The notes below the pieces were generated by a model that saw nothing but the letters and a program-made list of their open reading frames with translations, was not told where the DNA came from and made no database searches. Positions 11,855 through 18,386 of a stretch of DNA of 64,000 bases are shown here, in pieces. Both the position numbers and the translations under genes were made by a program. Position 1 is the stretch's first letter, and every line of letters starts with the position of its first letter. Origin of the DNA: a virus (Duplodnaviria > Caudoviricetes); IMG/VR virus record IMGVR_UViG_3300028888_000116, positions 10,224-74,223 of that record, one strand, 5' to 3'.

Positions 11855-12103
11855 CTATACGAAAACTTCTTCCCATAAGCAAGGAATAAATCTTATATTT
11901 TCAATATAAGGCATCCTGCTATTCATCAAAGATTGTATTGGCACTCTTTCTTGTCCATATATTTTTCTGTAAATATCTTCTTCTGAAATTGGATTTGCTA
12001 TTCCATCAATAAGGATAGTTTTTGAATCTTCGTGGTACTGATGAAGATTACTTATAGTAATCAAATAATATCCTTTTTTGATAAGCAAAGAATTGGGATT
12101 CAT
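11855..12103 (-). CDS. Hypothetical protein
   Basis: 82 aa. Start overlaps the upstream stop (TAATG), GAGGA RBS, small hairpin at the 3' end. Confidence 0.7.
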   Translation of the reverse strand: MNPNSLLIKKGYYLITISNLHQYHEDSKTILIDGIANPISEEDIYRKIYGQERVPIQSLMNSRMPYIENIRFIPCLWEEVFV

Positions 12104-12300
12104 TACTCGTCCTCGTAATATTCAACAGAGATGATTTTCCAGTCGTTGAACTCATCTTCATCTTCAAATTGAGCCTGGTCGAAAGCCTTCATCTTAGCTT
12201 CCTGTTCTGAATTTACCAAACTTCCATCTACAAAATAATCATCAGTTCCGTAAGACTGACCATCTAAAAATTTTTCGATTGTTACCTTGTATGTTCCCAT
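12103..12300 (-). CDS. Hypothetical acidic protein
   Basis: 65 aa, GGAG RBS. Confidence 0.75.
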   Translation of the reverse strand: MGTYKVTIEKFLDGQSYGTDDYFVDGSLVNSEQEAKMKAFDQAQFEDEDEFNDWKIISVEYYEDE

Positions 12301-12380
12301 ATTTTCAAATCTCCAATGCTAAATTTCTACAGTTGGCGCCATTCGTAGATTTTCTCTGACTTTCTTATTTATTTGAAAAT

Positions 12381-12557
12381 TTATTTATCAACATTTTCTA
12401 AATTAAAAGTATTTGGAGTAATTCCAAGTTGCTGATTTAATAATTCTTCCTGTACACTTTGAAGAACAAATGCTCTTTCAATAAATTGAAGTTCACAATA
12501 ATCTAAATCTTGCTTGTCTTTTATTTTTTGAAAAACTCTTTTTGCAAAATCATTCAT
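12381..12557 (-). CDS. Hypothetical protein (58 aa, below the ORF-track cutoff)
   Basis: GAGGAG RBS, then MNDFAKRVFSKIKDKQDLDYCELQFIERAFVLQSVQEELLNQQLGITPNTFNLENVDK. Confidence 0.75.
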   Translation of the reverse strand: MNDFAKRVFQKIKDKQDLDYCELQFIERAFVLQSVQEELLNQQLGITPNTFNLENVDK

Positions 12558-12564
12558 TGTTAAC

Positions 12565-12647
12565 TCCTCGTAATATTTATTTGAAAACTTTACCCCATAA
12601 ACAAGGAATAAATCTTTTCGATTGTTACCTTGTATGTTCCCATATTT
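12565..12647 (-). pseudogene. Chimeric remnant built from pieces of the two downstream genes
   Basis: 12615-12647 equals 12272-12304 (33/33), 12583-12616 matches 11861-11894 (30/34), and 12565-12577 equals 12110-12122. Encodes MGTYKVTIEKIYSLFMG*. Confidence 0.75.
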
Positions 12648-12677
12648 ATTATATAATAAATATGGAATAAAAAGTTA
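12640..12677 (-). promoter_or_regulatory. Class E promoter; the -10 region lies within a 26-bp perfect palindrome
   Basis: TAACTT (12677-12672)-N18-TATAAT (12653-12648)-AAAT-ATG. CCATATTTATTATATAATAAATATGG at 12640-12665 is self-complementary. Confidence 0.65.
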
Positions 12678-14333
12678 AAATTCAAATCCCATTTTTTCCA
12701 TAAATTCATCTTGTTTGACTTTCATTGTTTCATAACTTCTATCATTAAGAGCCATCGGTCGCCAAACTACGAATGGTATGAATTCATTATCATATTTATT
12801 TAGAAGCTCTATTGTTCCCGTTACAGCATCTGCAGCATCTTTTGCATTGACACCTCTTTGGTCCGTTTCCCAATCTCCATTTCCATCGGTCACAATATCT
12901 CCACTGAAGTGGTCAATTTTTGTTGTTCCTTTTCCCTGTTTTCTTTTTTCAAAATGGAGAGAAAGCATATTATTTTTCATATAGATACATTTTCCAGCGA
13001 ACCATCTTTTATGTTGAACATAGTCAATAAAATTAAGATAAGGCTCGTTTGTTTTATCTACAGAAATATAATCTACATCAATTCCTTTTCTTTTCAAAAA
13101 CTGAATAGAAGGTTGAGACTGGAATCCATCATAAGAAACGTGTTTTATTTTCAGATTTCCAAGTGAAACTAAATCCCAAATAAAACATTTAATTGCATCA
13201 AGGTTTATGATTCCACCTTTTGGTATAATTGTAATAATAAAATCAGTGACAAATACTTTTACAGGATTTCCTGTTACAGCATCTTTTCTTTCTGAATCTC
13301 GTTCTACGTGAGACATCGCAATTGAAGTAACGTCTCCTGCATAAGATTGGTCGACGGAAACTACTCTAGGTATTCCTGGCTCATAATAGAAATAATATTT
13401 ATCAATAATTTTATTAAAAAACTTATCTTTAATCTGATTCCAAATCAAATGCTCTGGTTCTTCTTCAGCAGGAGCTGTAATTTGTCCAAACATATTTCTT
13501 AAATTATTTTCAAAACAATCATTTACAGTTTGCTTATTATAGAAGATTCTATCAGGAGTACCAGATGGAATACCGCATTGGTCTCTTAAAAACTCTATTG
13601 GAGATTCAAGAGCGGCATCCAACATAGATTTATTACCATTTGATGTTACCTGAGTTGTTGGAGCCCATACTATATCAGTTGATTGATAGGTTGATAATTC
13701 GCCTTCTGATTCAATTACTTTTGGAGGCTGTCCAGCATTTCCTTTAAAAATAGGGAATGTTTGTTTTTTATTAAATTCTTTTTTCAAGCATTCTTGGTCA
13801 AGTGCCTTTTTTATTGCTTCTTTTGTCTCTACTTCTCCAGTTGGTGAAGATTTCCAATTTGGTCTTGGAGTTTCCCAAGCATAAGGATATTCTTGTGGAA
13901 AGTATTTCCATCTTGAGCCAGTAACAATGTAATTTTCATTACTATTTGGGGCCTCGTGCCAAATCCAATCGTCAATTACTGATTCAAGAGAGTTTGGCTG
14001 AGAGTCAATTATCATTCTTCCATAATAATTGCCTTTCATACGGTTATCAATTCTTTTTCTTAATTTTGTAAAGAAAGTAAAAATCTTTTCATTAGTCCAA
14101 CCATTTTCAGTAAACATTGTCATTTCAGATATAACAGCTGAAATAATATTCTGTCCCAAAATAGAACCAGGGCCATTTATGATTTTATAATTTACCCCAT
14201 TCTGAAATTGCAAAACTGAATTATGAGTTACTATATTATCTTCAGTTAAATAAAGACCATCTTCAGTGGATAAATGAATACACTTTTGTTTTTCTTTTCC
14301 TATATATTTTATACTTTTAATTTTAATTGGCAT
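12675..14333 (-). CDS. terL: Terminase large subunit, C-terminal part, with N-terminal split-intein C fragment
   Basis: Residues 1-38 end IVTHN and are followed by Ser. Then Walker B-like AVISEM, coupling motif IIDSQP and the RNase H-like nuclease motif RVVSVDQSYAGD. AAGGTGG RBS. Confidence 0.85.
   Translation of the reverse strand: MPIKIKSIKYIGKEKQKCIHLSTEDGLYLTEDNIVTHNSVLQFQNGVNYKIINGPGSILGQNIISAVISEMTMFTENGWTNEKIFTFFTKLRKRIDNRMKGNYYGRMIIDSQPNSLESVIDDWIWHEAPNSNENYIVTGSRWKYFPQEYPYAWETPRPNWKSSPTGEVETKEAIKKALDQECLKKEFNKKQTFPIFKGNAGQPPKVIESEGELSTYQSTDIVWAPTTQVTSNGNKSMLDAALESPIEFLRDQCGIPSGTPDRIFYNKQTVNDCFENNLRNMFGQITAPAEEEPEHLIWNQIKDKFFNKIIDKYYFYYEPGIPRVVSVDQSYAGDVTSIAMSHVERDSERKDAVTGNPVKVFVTDFIITIIPKGGIINLDAIKCFIWDLVSLGNLKIKHVSYDGFQSQPSIQFLKRKGIDVDYISVDKTNEPYLNFIDYVQHKRWFAGKCIYMKNNMLSLHFEKRKQGKGTTKIDHFSGDIVTDGNGDWETDQRGVNAKDAADAVTGTIELLNKYDNEFIPFVVWRPMALNDRSYETMKVKQDEFMEKMGFEF
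14220..14333 (-). mobile_element. Split intein C fragment (IntC, 38 aa)
   Basis: MPIKIKSIKYIGKEKQKCIHLSTEDGLYLTEDNIVTHN|S. Block F has Cys at the usual Asp position, block G is THN, and the fragment is Lys-rich. Confidence 0.9.
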
Positions 14334-15138
14334 ATTTCCACCTTAATTTTTCTCCATTTATTGACCCAGCAACTCCGCCATTTACTTTGCAAGCTTCGGA
14401 TATATGCCTTGCCATTGGATACTTATTTCTTGCTTCTTGTATTGTTTCAAAATATTCTCCAGTATTTATTAAAATACAGGCTCTTGCCCTTGGGTTATTT
14501 CTCCCTTTTCTTTTTTCAGAGCCTTTTCCAAAATGCTCTTTTCTTTCACTTTCAGACATTTTAGAAATGGTTTCACTTCTTGATTTTTTTATTTTATCAA
14601 GAGTATCTTGAGTATGAGTTTTTCCATAAAACGGATTATTTTTTCCTGTTTTATCATAACCATTAAATTTTTTTGAACGCTCTTCTTTTGACATTTTAGA
14701 AATTGTTTCAGCCCTTGCTTTTCTTGCTTTTTCTATCTGCTCTTTTGTTGGGTGCCACTCACCACGATAATTAATTCCTCGTCTATTTTCAGAGTTTATT
14801 TTTCTTATTTTCTCATATTCTCTTGAAGTAATTTTATATTTTTCTTTATTTTTTCCCATTGACATATAATATATAGCATAAGTCATTTCTCTTGAAGGGT
14901 AAATTTTTAATAAAAGCTGATGACAAAAGAAATGCTCTCTTGCTGTTAAAGCAACAATATTTTCTTCTTTTTTATTCCAATTAGGAAATAAACTTCTTGG
15001 CAAAATATGATGAAACTCAAAATATTGATTTTCAAATTTTTTTCTTCTCGAATGAGATAAATTATCTGGCCTATTTCCTAATTTCATTTCATTTTTTGCG
15101 TTTGAAATTATTTTCATATAAATTCTTCTATAATTCAT
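14323..15138 (-). mobile_element. Free-standing HNH homing endonuclease with NUMOD3-like DNA-binding region
   Basis: NYRRIY...FEFHHILPRS...ENIVALTAREHFFCHQLL HNH motif, plus GKNNPFYGKTHTQDTLDKI. Own class L motif 3 nt before the ATG. Lies between the two terL halves. Confidence 0.85.
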
Positions 15139-15156
15139 ATTAAATTAGTAAATTTT

Positions 15157-15477
15157 TTACTTGGAGTTGGTAGGGAAGTCGTCCAATTCTATAATTTCCC
15201 AATCAAACTCCGGGTGTTCCATAATATATTTTAAATTTTGAACTTCCCATTCACTTTCTGGTGAACGCCTTACTTTCCATAAATGAAAATCAGAACATCT
15301 AACTTTTCTGCCATCTTCTAATTCAATTTCGTAACAATCTGCTTCACCTTCAAAAGGGATATTTGTAACTGTTGCTTCACCTTGACTTGGAGATTTTACT
15401 TTATCTCCAATTTTTATTTCGCCCATTGTTTTTATTGAATTATCAGCCATTATTATTTTTGAATCTAAAGGCTGCGC
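15157..15477 (-). mobile_element. Split intein N fragment (IntN, 106 aa, Ala1)
   Basis: AQPLDSKIIMADNSIKTMGEIKIGDKV (block A) ... DGRKVRCSDFHLWKV (block B, with His and Trp), then an acidic tail and a stop. Confidence 0.9.
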
Positions 15478-16239
15478 AGTCGGGCTTGATGTTGTCCAGT
15501 GAAGGCAATTCGTTAATTCATCTCCAGCGGCATCAACCAAATCTGTATGAGAACGAACTCTCTTAAAATATGGACTCTGCTCAAGAATCTGAATAAATGG
15601 CTCAACAAGTAATTCCGATGCTTTCTTCTGATTCCAAGCACCCATACATTGAGTAAATACTGATGATGGAGCAAGATTAAAGAATTTCCACGGATGCCAC
15701 ATCATAGCATAATGAGTAGAAATATATAATTGAATAAGGGTTGATAATGTTGATTTACCAGCACCAATACATTGAGTTAAAACTAAAGTTCTATATGGTT
15801 TTAATGGATTCATAAAATCTATGAATACATCTCTAGCCCAATCGAATGTTGATTCAGCCTGATTTCCGATATATTTTTCAGTTAAGAACTCTTCGGGAGT
15901 TGGGGGCTTTGCTTTAAAATTTAATCTCCAACCTTCTGCCAATAAATTATCTTTAAATGAATCATTTAACTTATCATTTCTAGCAAGCCATTCTATAGCT
16001 GCCATAATATTATCAATATTTAAATTTTCTACGAGTTTATTATCAAATTGAGAAGTATCTCCAGCTAAAATATCTTCAAGAATATATTTTAATTCGCCCA
16101 ATTCATTAGGGAGAGGTAAATTTTCAGATGGAGTTACAATGCCCTTTTCAATTTCCCATTTTGTTTTATCAGTATCAAAATCTTTAACTTTAATTGAGAA
16201 TGGGTTCTCGTCAGGGTTTGAAATTATATTTTCGTCCAT
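15157..16239 (-). CDS. terL: Terminase large subunit, N-terminal ATPase part, fused to IntN
   Basis: Walker A LVLTQCIGAGKST. Intein block A begins at residue 255. ACTAAATA 3 nt before the ATG. Confidence 0.85.
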   Translation of the reverse strand: MDENIISNPDENPFSIKVKDFDTDKTKWEIEKGIVTPSENLPLPNELGELKYILEDILAGDTSQFDNKLVENLNIDNIMAAIEWLARNDKLNDSFKDNLLAEGWRLNFKAKPPTPEEFLTEKYIGNQAESTFDWARDVFIDFMNPLKPYRTLVLTQCIGAGKSTLSTLIQLYISTHYAMMWHPWKFFNLAPSSVFTQCMGAWNQKKASELLVEPFIQILEQSPYFKRVRSHTDLVDAAGDELTNCLHWTTSSPTAQPLDSKIIMADNSIKTMGEIKIGDKVKSPSQGEATVTNIPFEGEADCYEIELEDGRKVRCSDFHLWKVRRSPESEWEVQNLKYIMEHPEFDWEIIELDDFPTNSK

Positions 16240-16304
16240 AATTATTTAGTCATATAAAATTAAATAGAGTTTACCCAAAATGTGGATATTATGTGGAAAA
16301 CTTG

Positions 16305-18386
16305 TTAACTAAAATTCATTCCTTGTTGAGCATTAAAGATTCTTTTCCAATTATCTTGTGAAATATAATCTTTATTCATAAGAGAATTTAAAAGATTTCC
16401 TTTTGTTCTTAAGTTCTCAGCTTGGATATAATCAATAGAATTCTTATAACAGAATGTATAAGTTCTACTCATAGCATCTTTACCGGGTCTGTGGATTCTT
16501 CCCCTACTCTGTTCATAAACAGTATAATTATAAGTCTTTTCAAGATAGCATTGGAATTTACATTCAGTAAGAGTTACAGAAGTATTCATAATATTTATAG
16601 AAGCGATAATAATTTTATGTTTATTATTATTCTTAAATTCTTTTATCGCATTTGAAATATCATCTTTACCCATTCCAGCTTGAATTACTATTGGGTCATA
16701 TTTTTTTAATGAACTCTTTAAACAGTCAGCCGTTTTTGGGTGATAATACCAAACAATTCCTCGTTCTTCTGATTCATCAACTCTATCTATTAAAACATCT
16801 TTAAGAGCATCAAATTTTGTTGCATCATTTTGGTATTTATAACTCTTTATACTTTTCTGTAATTCAGATGGAAATTTCTCAAATGTCGGAGTGTTCACAA
16901 TACATTCGGGATTGTCTACTGCTAATTGGAATATTCCAAACATATTCATAATAGAATCTTTAACTGTAGCTTCTCCAGCTAATTTTCTAGCCTGGGCTGC
17001 TTTTAATTCTTCTTTTGTGAACTCTTCATATATTTTTCTTTGTAATGGACTCATATCAAGATAAATCGTTGGAACGTCATAATCCATCGGCAAATCAAGA
17101 CATTCATTCATCATTCTTTTTGAGCCATATACTGATAATAATATTTTATTTAATTCATTTATTTTTTCAAGATTCCAAGTTTCTTCATTAATAGCATATT
17201 TTGAAAATCTATTACCTAATTGAACATAATCAGTAAGCCAATCTTCATAGGATTTTCCATTAACTAATGCTCTATCCAAAATTTTAAGAGGCTGATATAA
17301 TTTTTCATATTTATCTGCTAATGTTCCAGTAAACTCATATCTATATTTGAAATATGTAATATTCATATTCAGTAATTGAGAACGTCTAGAACCAGGATTA
17401 TTTATTGTATGAACTTCATCAAGAAATAATCCACCATTATGTCCCTGTAGCCATTCTACTATTGGGATAGACGATTCCCGATATTTTGTTTTTTCACTTG
17501 GATGTGATTTTGCTCTTAAGTTTTTTAATTCATCAGTAATCTTTTTATATTCTTTATCAGTCTTTAATAATTCTTCAGCTTCATCTGCTCTTATTCCTAA
17601 TAATTTTTTAGCAGCTTTAAAATTCTTTCTATATTCTTGTTCTAATTTTACCTGAGTTTCAATTTGTTTTGGTAATTTAGATGGAATATGAGTTTTATCA
17701 TAATAATAATTATTTACTGACTTAAAAGAATCATAAGTCATTATAATAATTTTATATGGATATTTTTCAATATTAAAAATATCGCGGTCTTCAAAAGATT
17801 TTTCAGAAATAGAATTCAAAACAAATATTTCTTCATCTTTAAGAGTTGTTCCAAACTTTAATAATTCATCTTTAAGATTATAAACTCCAACTCCAGTTGA
17901 GAAGATTAAACATTTATCTATTTTCTTATAATAACGAAGATTCTCAATTAAAGCAGCAAGACAGTAGCTTTTGCCTAGTCCCATTTGCCAGTTGAATAAA
18001 AATCTATTCTGTCTTAATGCTCTACTTATATCTTCCTTTTGATAATTTTCAAATGGGTGAATACCCTTTAAAGGTGGGAATTTTAATAAATCTTCTTTAA
18101 ATAATATACGTTCTTTTGATTGTTCAAGTTCTTTTAGATTATCTAAATATAATTGAATATTTCTTGCTTCTAATTCAGAAAACTCTACATTAAAGCCATT
18201 ATATTTTAATTCTAACTCTAAATCATAAGCATCAAATATAGATTTTTCCCAAAGCTTTGTTTCAAAATTAAAGCTACAACCATTTTCTTTTAGGGTTTCG
18301 TATGCTCTTTGGAATTCAGATTTTGAGTTTTCTCTTATTTTAATTTCGAGTTTTCCAGTACTATTATTACAAAAGAACTCAATCAT
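16305..18386 (-). CDS. SNF2/SWI2-family helicase-like ATPase
   Basis: Motif I FNWQMGLGKS, motif II LFLDEVH, motif III FTGT, motif VI QSRGRIHRPG. Confidence 0.85.
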   Translation of the reverse strand: MIEFFCNNSTGKLEIKIRENSKSEFQRAYETLKENGCSFNFETKLWEKSIFDAYDLELELKYNGFNVEFSELEARNIQLYLDNLKELEQSKERILFKEDLLKFPPLKGIHPFENYQKEDISRALRQNRFLFNWQMGLGKSYCLAALIENLRYYKKIDKCLIFSTGVGVYNLKDELLKFGTTLKDEEIFVLNSISEKSFEDRDIFNIEKYPYKIIIMTYDSFKSVNNYYYDKTHIPSKLPKQIETQVKLEQEYRKNFKAAKKLLGIRADEAEELLKTDKEYKKITDELKNLRAKSHPSEKTKYRESSIPIVEWLQGHNGGLFLDEVHTINNPGSRRSQLLNMNITYFKYRYEFTGTLADKYEKLYQPLKILDRALVNGKSYEDWLTDYVQLGNRFSKYAINEETWNLEKINELNKILLSVYGSKRMMNECLDLPMDYDVPTIYLDMSPLQRKIYEEFTKEELKAAQARKLAGEATVKDSIMNMFGIFQLAVDNPECIVNTPTFEKFPSELQKSIKSYKYQNDATKFDALKDVLIDRVDESEERGIVWYYHPKTADCLKSSLKKYDPIVIQAGMGKDDISNAIKEFKNNNKHKIIIASINIMNTSVTLTECKFQCYLEKTYNYTVYEQSRGRIHRPGKDAMSRTYTFCYKNSIDYIQAENLRTKGNLLNSLMNKDYISQDNWKRIFNAQQGMNFS

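Follow-up and report, generated by a model that had tools for sequence, protein, structure and literature searches.

In 2020, Hoffmann et al. described AceL NrdHF, the first naturally split class 3 intein to be reported, and noted that no split form occurred among the 1701 class 3 inteins in nr (PMC7891396). Inteins of this class are recognized by the absence of a nucleophile at residue 1 and by a W-C-T triplet, made up of a Trp at position 12 of block B (B:12), a Cys at F:4, and a Thr at G:5 (PMC2807308, PMC7891396). In the literature that we searched, where most subscription journals fell outside, there was no natural split class 3 intein besides AceL NrdHF and no description of the family to which the element reported here belongs, an intein that divides the large terminase gene (terL) of a phage. 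It lies in a 64,000-nucleotide (nt) stretch, hereafter the window, of the 74-kb IMG/VR record IMGVR_UViG_3300028888_000116, where the two intein halves are fused to the two parts of the terminase and a gene for an HNH homing endonuclease separates them. An initial annotation of the window had proposed a terminase split by a naturally split class 3-type intein with Ala1 and a W-C-T triplet; the anatomy, the homology, and the complete signature all hold. Natural split class 3 inteins are a kind already known from AceL NrdHF, to which the window element adds a member. The arrangement is real and probably functional: we consider it likely that terL has been fractured by a mobile cassette, that the two halves trans-splice by the class 3 route into a terminase of 768 amino acids (aa), and that the HNH enzyme mediates homing.

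Like the window intein, AceL NrdHF is naturally split, starts with Ala1, carries the block F (C2:4) Cys, and is divided at the loop where endonuclease domains are usually inserted. Each resides in a fractured gene, that of AceL NrdHF being from a probable phage, with a free-standing homing endonuclease gene between the halves, and the C2:13 His is missing in both. The two are similar in size (98 + 48 aa for AceL NrdHF, 106 + 38 aa in the window) but differ in host gene (nrdHF versus terL) and in the type of endonuclease (GIY-YIG versus HNH/NUMOD3). AceL NrdHF possesses an M-C-T triplet and no C1:6 His, whereas the window intein displays the canonical W-C-T triplet and a Thr-His-Asn terminus. 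In the PDB searches no chain named AceL NrdHF occurred among the sequence matches or the listed fold-search rows; its presence in the searched PDB copy is unconfirmed, so this result says little on the independence of the two split events. The 'fractured genes' surveyed by Dassa et al. in 2009 contained GIY-YIG and Vsr-like nucleases between split-intein halves, not HNH (PMC2677866).

The locus consists of three consecutive open reading frames (ORFs), and all coordinates given below are window positions on the minus strand. Gene 1 (15157–16239, stop codon included), delimited by its ORF and tblastn matches, encodes a 360-aa protein in which a 254-aa TerL N-extein ending in HWTTSSPT (15478–16239) is followed by the 106-aa N-terminal intein half, IntN, which begins with Ala1 in an AQPLD motif (15160–15477). 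Two in-frame stop codons lie between IntN and the second gene, a free-standing HNH/NUMOD3 homing endonuclease of 271 aa (14323–15138). Gene 3 (12675–14333, stop codon included; ORF and tblastn) encodes 552 aa, of which the first 38 form the C-terminal intein half, IntC (14220–14333), and the remaining 514 form the C-extein (12678–14219); the latter starts with SVLQFQNG and, by homology and the model of a relative, comprises the rest of the ATPase domain and the nuclease domain. The cassette of IntN, HNH gene, and IntC thus measures 1258 bp (14220–15477). Its G+C content (0.291) does not differ from that of the window (0.293). The ATG of gene 3 lies at 14333, within the HNH gene, so that the two genes have 11 nt in common, a layout shared by a metagenomic contig, L056. 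No second intein half was found in the window, and no second copy of terL or of the HNH gene was found in the 74-kb record, which CheckV rated 23% complete; the phage genome is therefore probably ~300 kb.

Annotated phage terminases are detected with both exteins by tblastn: the N-extein matches the TerL proteins of Xanthomonas phage phiXF1 (2e-14) and ReqiDocB7 (2e-8), and the IntC-bearing C-terminal protein matches those of Vibrio and Gordonia phages. No terminase family in Pfam was matched by either extein, and a sequence profile of the C-terminal protein found no terminase in the PDB, so that the identification relies on tblastn and on fold. Dozens of public contiguous TerL relatives are 768–769 aa long and 84–89% identical, and across the insertion site they read (C/H)WTT(S/T)(S/T)PT-S(V/A/C)L, as in the HICWTTSSPT-SVLQL of the intein-free protein P0123. 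When the window exteins were joined in silico (254 + 514 aa), the 768-aa product aligned without gaps from residue 1 to 768 with another intein-free relative, P0139, at 87% identity (87–89% over the intein-free relatives so aligned), and the same spacing was retained in distant contiguous relatives at 62% and 41% identity (L001 and L002). Queried against the phage record, P0139 matches at two places only, through its residues 1–255 (85% identity) and 253–768 (88%). This gap-free correspondence fixes the intein exactly at 15477–15160 plus 14333–14220, running from Ala to Asn before Ser+1, and the prediction that excision of both halves would restore HWTTSSPT|SVLQF is borne out, the join being the sequence of the contiguous relatives.

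Contiguous counterparts of terL exist with an intein as well. The 894-aa protein P0208 harbors the same intein uninterrupted at the same site (residues 262–399), from AQPLDAKVY to HIVTHN|SALQMQNG, and in its internal loop, DNKK-PTKIK, the residues equivalent to the last of the window IntN meet those equivalent to the first of the window IntC. The window halves are therefore one intein in two parts.

P0208, which is 48% identical to the window proteins, was modeled with AlphaFold from an alignment of contiguous and split relatives, yielding a mean predicted local distance difference test score (pLDDT) of 81. In a fold search, residues 117–597 of the model, which span the insert, matched the ATPase domain of P74-26 TerL (Z 18.4), with further matches to full-length HK97 TerL (Z 18.1) and T4 gp17 (Z 16.9–17.3), while residues 594–854 matched the G20c TerL nuclease (Z 14.5). 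Residues 262–397 instead retrieved solved inteins with Z of 10.5–11.3, among them the class 3 inteins MchDnaB1 (11.3) and Msm DnaBi1 (11.1) and the gp41-1 intein (11.2). By structure and homology, the gene encodes a genuine large terminase with an ATPase and an RNase-H-like nuclease. In the model, the insert sits inside the TerL ATPase domain, after the P-loop and before a Walker-B-like strand. The proposal that splicing would join Walker A to Walker B is clear in its first part, the Walker A motif GAGKST (15748–15765) falling in the model region that aligns with the ATPase domains of P74-26, T4, and HK97 TerL; the Walker B assignment (IISAVISEM, 14121–14147, in the C-extein) is putative, drawn from the strand pattern.

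IntN presents block B as G-R-K-V-R-C-S-D-F-H-L-W, in which His65 (B:10) and Trp67 (B:12) (His65-Leu-Trp67, 15277–15285) align with the H-Q-W of M. smegmatis DnaBi1 and the H-L-W of an engineered gp41-1 variant, gp41-1_WCT; both residues carry the same numbers in the Bethlehem and MchDnaB1 inteins. Invariance was assessed in 22 orthologs of the N-terminal protein and 18 of the C-terminal protein, 40–88% identical overall. The A-Q-P-L-D start, His65, and Trp67 were conserved in all 22 of the former (40–86% identical), and Cys18 (14280–14282), Thr36-His37-Asn38 (block G positions 5–7), and Ser+1 (together 14217–14228) in all 18 of the latter, which agrees with both halves as they had been annotated: a 106-aa IntN opening with AQPL and bearing H-x-W, and a 38-aa IntC with its F:4 Cys and THN before Ser+1. 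Across the IntC pieces of the wider family, the Cys is present in 78 of 78 and THN in 77 of 78, while the +1 residue is Ser in 72, Thr in four, and Cys in two. At residue 1, family members have A, S, P, N, D, E, L, or Q, a variability that speaks against a nucleophile at that position.

Homology searches against known inteins corroborated the assignment. Within the PDB, IntN matched the gp41-1 intein with an E-value of 5.8e-6 alone and 1.3e-9 as a profile of its ortholog family; matches to 1871 cluster representatives were obtained at E ≤ 0.001. Inteins in helicases, primases, and terminases of phages were likewise matched by IntN. With a profile built from 18 contiguous relatives, E-values were 2.6e-13 to 4.1e-13 for class 3 DnaB inteins and 2.8e-18 for gp41-1_WCT; the profile placed the relatives' Cys at F-block position 4 of PI-SceI, with His at position 13 and Tyr at position 15. 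P0208 used as a single PDB query was set aside, its alignment having stopped short of the C-terminal blocks. Pfam Hint matches were weak and fell below the cut-off, and IntC alone gave only weak matches in the PDB. We assign Cys18 to F:4 from its distances to the residues at +8 (His or Gly) and +10 (Tyr), which are the same in the contiguous class 3 relatives; in the profile alignment, the Cys of these relatives falls on F:4 of PI-SceI. IntC itself has Gly in place of the F:13 His. A weak match obtained by HMMER with the Neq Pol IntC had put the Cys two positions off F:4; we set it aside as driven by a chance LSTE-G match. The substitution at F:13 recurs in the split terminase subfamily, which reads DGLY where the contiguous P-loop relatives read DHLY. 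At the level of sequence, the intein carries every class 3 mark. The expectation of an acidic IntN and a basic IntC holds for the first, with a net charge of -10, while IntC is about neutral (+1) and basic only over residues 1–17 (+5).

Among solved structures, gp41-1 (PDB 6QAZ) is the closest by sequence, and its genes follow the same layout of extein-IntN, endonuclease gene, and IntC-extein. The window IntN aligns with its C-S-x-x-H-L motif. The gp41-1 intein, too, ends in T-H-N before Ser+1. It is nonetheless a class 1 intein, with Cys1, F:4 Asp, and B:12 Phe, in place of which the window intein naturally has Ala1, Cys, and Trp. The W-C-T triplet of gp41-1_WCT (6RIZ, PMC7664689) was engineered and that variant did not splice, whereas the triplet in the window is natural. 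Contiguous class 3 inteins, namely the Bethlehem DnaB intein (PMC2807308), M. smegmatis DnaBi1 (6BS8), and M. chimaera DnaB1 (6RIX), share with it the lack of a residue-1 nucleophile, His65 and Trp67, the F:4 Cys, the G:5 Thr, a Ser or Thr at +1, and a phage origin. They are single chains found mostly in ATPase P-loops and often bearing a LAGLIDADG domain, while the window intein is split, occupies a TerL site other than the P-loop, and has Gly at F:13. In the LAGLIDADG-bearing contiguous relatives, the endonuclease domain sits between the parts equivalent to IntN and IntC. Two terminase inteins, AceL-TerL and GOS-TerL, are split atypically, being broken near the N-terminus, and have residue-1 nucleophiles. 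The GOS terminase locus (Dassa et al. 2009, PMC2677866) likewise places a split intein in the large terminase of an uncultured phage; its break near the N-terminus leaves a C-part of 122 residues, in contrast to the window intein, which is split at the canonical site and carries class 3 marks. Finally, M. smegmatis DnaBi1 has been split artificially ~40 residues before the C-junction, and the resulting pair trans-splices and needs the Cys of its IntC (PMC10559147); the 38-aa window IntC carries the corresponding Cys, though that split is laboratory-made and in a different intein.

Several observations bear on the function and mobility of the cassette. The HNH protein matches the homing endonuclease family phrog_655 (1.8e-36), the HNH family phrog_12434 (4.9e-14), and Pfam NUMOD3 (4e-7), and its relatives are annotated as free-standing homing endonucleases in T4-like phages. 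On contig L056, an HNH gene 84% identical to that of the window runs into the same IntC-TerL gene with the 11-nt overlap kept. Comparison of the window with L056 gave ratios of nonsynonymous to synonymous substitution rates (dN/dS) of 0.21 (HNH gene), 0.16 (IntC), and 0.12 (C-extein), values that place the nuclease and IntC under purifying selection. In a more distant locus, L006 (68% identical), the intein halves lie 161 bp apart with no nuclease gene between them; the split state therefore persists in its absence.

Presence of the intein varies between closely related terminases. The C-exteins of P0121, the split allele encoded by L056, and of the intein-free P0139 are identical at 512 of 514 positions, and the N-exteins of P0002, which carries IntN, and of the intein-free P0123 at 249 of 254. 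Mapping intein presence at the window site onto a quick FastTree phylogeny of 119 metagenomic C-exteins called for no fewer than 15 changes, of which 13 are unavoidable given the well-supported branches, and the split alleles are intact in at least 19 lineages of the terminase family. IntN (window 15160–15477) is 75% identical to its counterpart in L006 (5745–6047), while the C-exteins of the same two phages are 62% identical; conservation of IntN beyond that of the extein may have arisen because the intein moved from one terminase lineage to another or because it is under tighter constraint. The near-identical exteins with and without the intein, the changes on the tree, and the conservation of IntN together suggest recent gain or precise loss, that is, homing.

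A scheme for the locus can be drawn from these observations; its inferred elements are the pairing of the two halves, the splicing reaction and its chemistry, and what the endonuclease does and where it cuts. The TerL-N::IntN (360 aa) and IntC::TerL-C (552 aa) precursors would be made as separate proteins, whereupon IntN, which is acidic, may associate with IntC through the basic N-terminal stretch of the latter, the two folding into a single HINT domain. As residue 1 is Ala, Cys18 at F:4 would act as the branch-point nucleophile and attack the Thr254-Ala1 bond, aided by His65 and Trp67, to form a branched thioester. The N-extein would then be transferred to Ser+1, Asn38 would cyclize with the participation of Thr36 and His37 and free the intein, and an O-to-N acyl shift would establish a normal peptide bond in the 768-aa terminase. 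The HNH enzyme, for its part, probably cuts the intein-free terL of co-infecting relatives, and repair would copy the whole cassette. This class 3 trans-splicing scheme is chemically plausible; trans-splicing is on record both for the naturally split AceL NrdHF (PMC7891396) and for DnaBi1 when split artificially ~40 residues short of its C-junction (PMC10559147).

Several points weigh against the scheme. Association and splicing are predictions from sequence. The F:13 residue, usually His, is Gly here (DGLY; Gly26 of IntC, codon 14258–14260), and IntC, at a net charge of +1, is not basic overall. Engineering the W-C-T triplet into gp41-1 gave a protein that failed to splice (PMC7664689), and since this is a variant of the closest solved relative by sequence, the triplet alone does not prove the class 3 route. 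The model is of a 48%-identical relative and not of the window proteins, and its intein part is of only moderate confidence (pLDDT ~46–78). The number of changes reconstructed on the extein tree could be inflated by recombination, and the FastTree method and metagenomic gene calls likewise limit the weight of the exact figure. Lastly, the record covers only ~23% of the phage genome, and an intact second terL elsewhere is possible.

The alternative that survives best, albeit an unlikely one, is that the halves associate without splicing, either as a two-chain terminase held together non-covalently by an intein remnant or as the product of a dead gene. Phage genes split by homing endonucleases can work unspliced, as exemplified by Aeh1 NrdA (PMC2677866, PMC3045599), and the exchange of the F:13 His for Gly as well as the 23% completeness of the record are consistent with such an outcome. 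However, all of the splicing residues are invariant over deep divergence, a pattern not anticipated for a module that serves only in docking, and the dN/dS of 0.16 for IntC and the intact split alleles in at least 19 family lineages speak against this alternative. The insert also interrupts the ATPase fold itself, with strands of a single domain on either side.

Trans-splicing by a route other than class 3, whether by direct attack of Ser+1 on the N-junction as in class 2 or by an undescribed variant, is in our estimation quite improbable. Class 2 (KlbA) inteins use a Cys at +1. Ala1 also marks that class (PMC2807308), and the W-C-T triplet is insufficient for class 3 chemistry (PMC7664689), both of which favor this alternative. 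Yet the +1 residue here is Ser, the F:4 Cys is invariant, and homology links the element to the class 3 DnaB inteins as well as to a large family with Ala1 and W-C-T. Class 2 inteins are devoid of the triplet (PMC2807308), and membership of the window intein in that class was rejected on account of its Ser+1 and its invariant W-C-T residues. Removal at the RNA level, by an intron with incidental intein-like motifs, is exceedingly improbable: homing endonuclease genes are often carried in group I introns of phage genes, but an Rfam search of 12000–17000 returned no intron or credible RNA family at E ≤ 1 (one chance snoRNA match only), both exteins continue in frame into the interrupting DNA, which specifies the two halves of a protein domain strongly homologous to inteins, and the same domain is contiguous in P0208.

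Under the preferred reading of two precursors joined by trans-splicing, each gene of the locus would be translated on its own, and the initial annotation had given each a start signal. This stands for TerL-C, which has a Shine-Dalgarno-like AAGGTGG 4 nt before its ATG (14338–14344, in the 3'-terminal part of the HNH gene). Neither TerL-N nor the HNH gene has a Shine-Dalgarno sequence; they share instead an ACTAA(A/T)T(A/T) motif 3–6 nt upstream of their starts, in the form ACTAATTT 3 nt before the HNH start codon (15142–15149) and as a like motif before TerL-N (16243–16250). Throughout the window, ACTARWTW occurs 35 times against 42.8 expected; without enrichment, any meaning of the motif is confined to its placement before these two start codons. 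Sigma-70-type promoters and intrinsic terminators were no more frequent than in shuffled sequence, and no terminator-like site was found on the coding (minus) strand between the three genes. Directly upstream of terL (16305–18386, minus strand) lies a gene for a 693-aa superfamily-2 helicase (Helicase_C 2.3e-10, ResIII 2e-6).

The window intein belongs to a wider family that exists in contiguous and split forms. Its contiguous phage relatives, a very large group, follow the pattern AQPLD...HLW...QCI...(D/N)HLY.TD..IVTHN|T/S, and most are inserted after the GxGK of P-loop ATPases and possess a LAGLIDADG domain. Inteins of the same type end or start separate proteins at no fewer than seven sites of this terminase family (proteins P0001–P0380): after the P-loop GxGK; after WHPWKFFG(Q/H); at WTTxxxT, the window site, here called site c; after S/GxLG(Q/N/S); after ENG(W/K), with an ALDL-type start; after YYGR; and after IPWxNGG. 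The best 150 of the 1871 cluster representatives matching IntN comprised 34 proteins that end in IntN and 143 contiguous copies, and within these 150 the split copies fell nearly all in this terminase family. Their abundance there indicates that split class 3-type inteins are not rare in metagenomes, only unreported.

Contiguous and split insertions may also be combined in one protein. P0010, P0019, and P0022 join a contiguous P-loop intein to a split site-c IntN, and P0095 joins a LAGLIDADG-bearing P-loop intein to a split IntN. Short stand-alone middle pieces (P0061, P0065, P0069, P0026, P0054, P0109, and P0114) have an IntC at the front (RCI...GIVTHN|S) and an IntN at the rear (AQPLD), which implies terminases made of three pieces that two split inteins of class 3 type, both from one family, would join. 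The L006 locus (L006:3310–7837; IMGVR_UViG_3300012983_000095) distributes TerL over three genes. The first extends as far as the P-loop (GWGK) and continues as a short N-piece of an intein, to which an HNH domain (Pfam HNH 6.5e-6) is fused in frame; the second comprises the remainder of that intein, a middle extein, and a site-c IntN, and the third consists of IntC and TerL-C. The first intein is thus split near its N-terminus, and its N-precursor includes the nuclease.

Split inteins serve as ligation tools, and the sole characterized natural split class 3 intein is atypical. A canonical W-C-T split intein would offer a system with no residue-1 nucleophile, a Ser at +1, and the nucleophilic Cys on a short half of 38 aa. 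The dozens of natural variants at differing extein junctions constitute material for studying junction tolerance and orthogonality, and they bear on why the W-C-T graft onto gp41-1 failed. Whether canonical W-C-T split class 3 inteins have a natural reservoir in this terminase lineage, spread over at least seven sites, with some three-piece TerL proteins that would need two non-cross-reacting reactions and with a window cassette that may still be homing, is a question on which we regard the case as evenly balanced; if the lineage is such a reservoir, it would supply sets of possibly orthogonal ligation modules with no need for a Cys at the N-junction. The coexistence of alleles on near-identical backgrounds opens the homing cycle to study in a natural population. 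Should the phage have no terminase gene besides these two pieces, DNA packaging would depend on post-translational ligation, and a selfish element would have made itself indispensable inside the ATPase domain of the motor.

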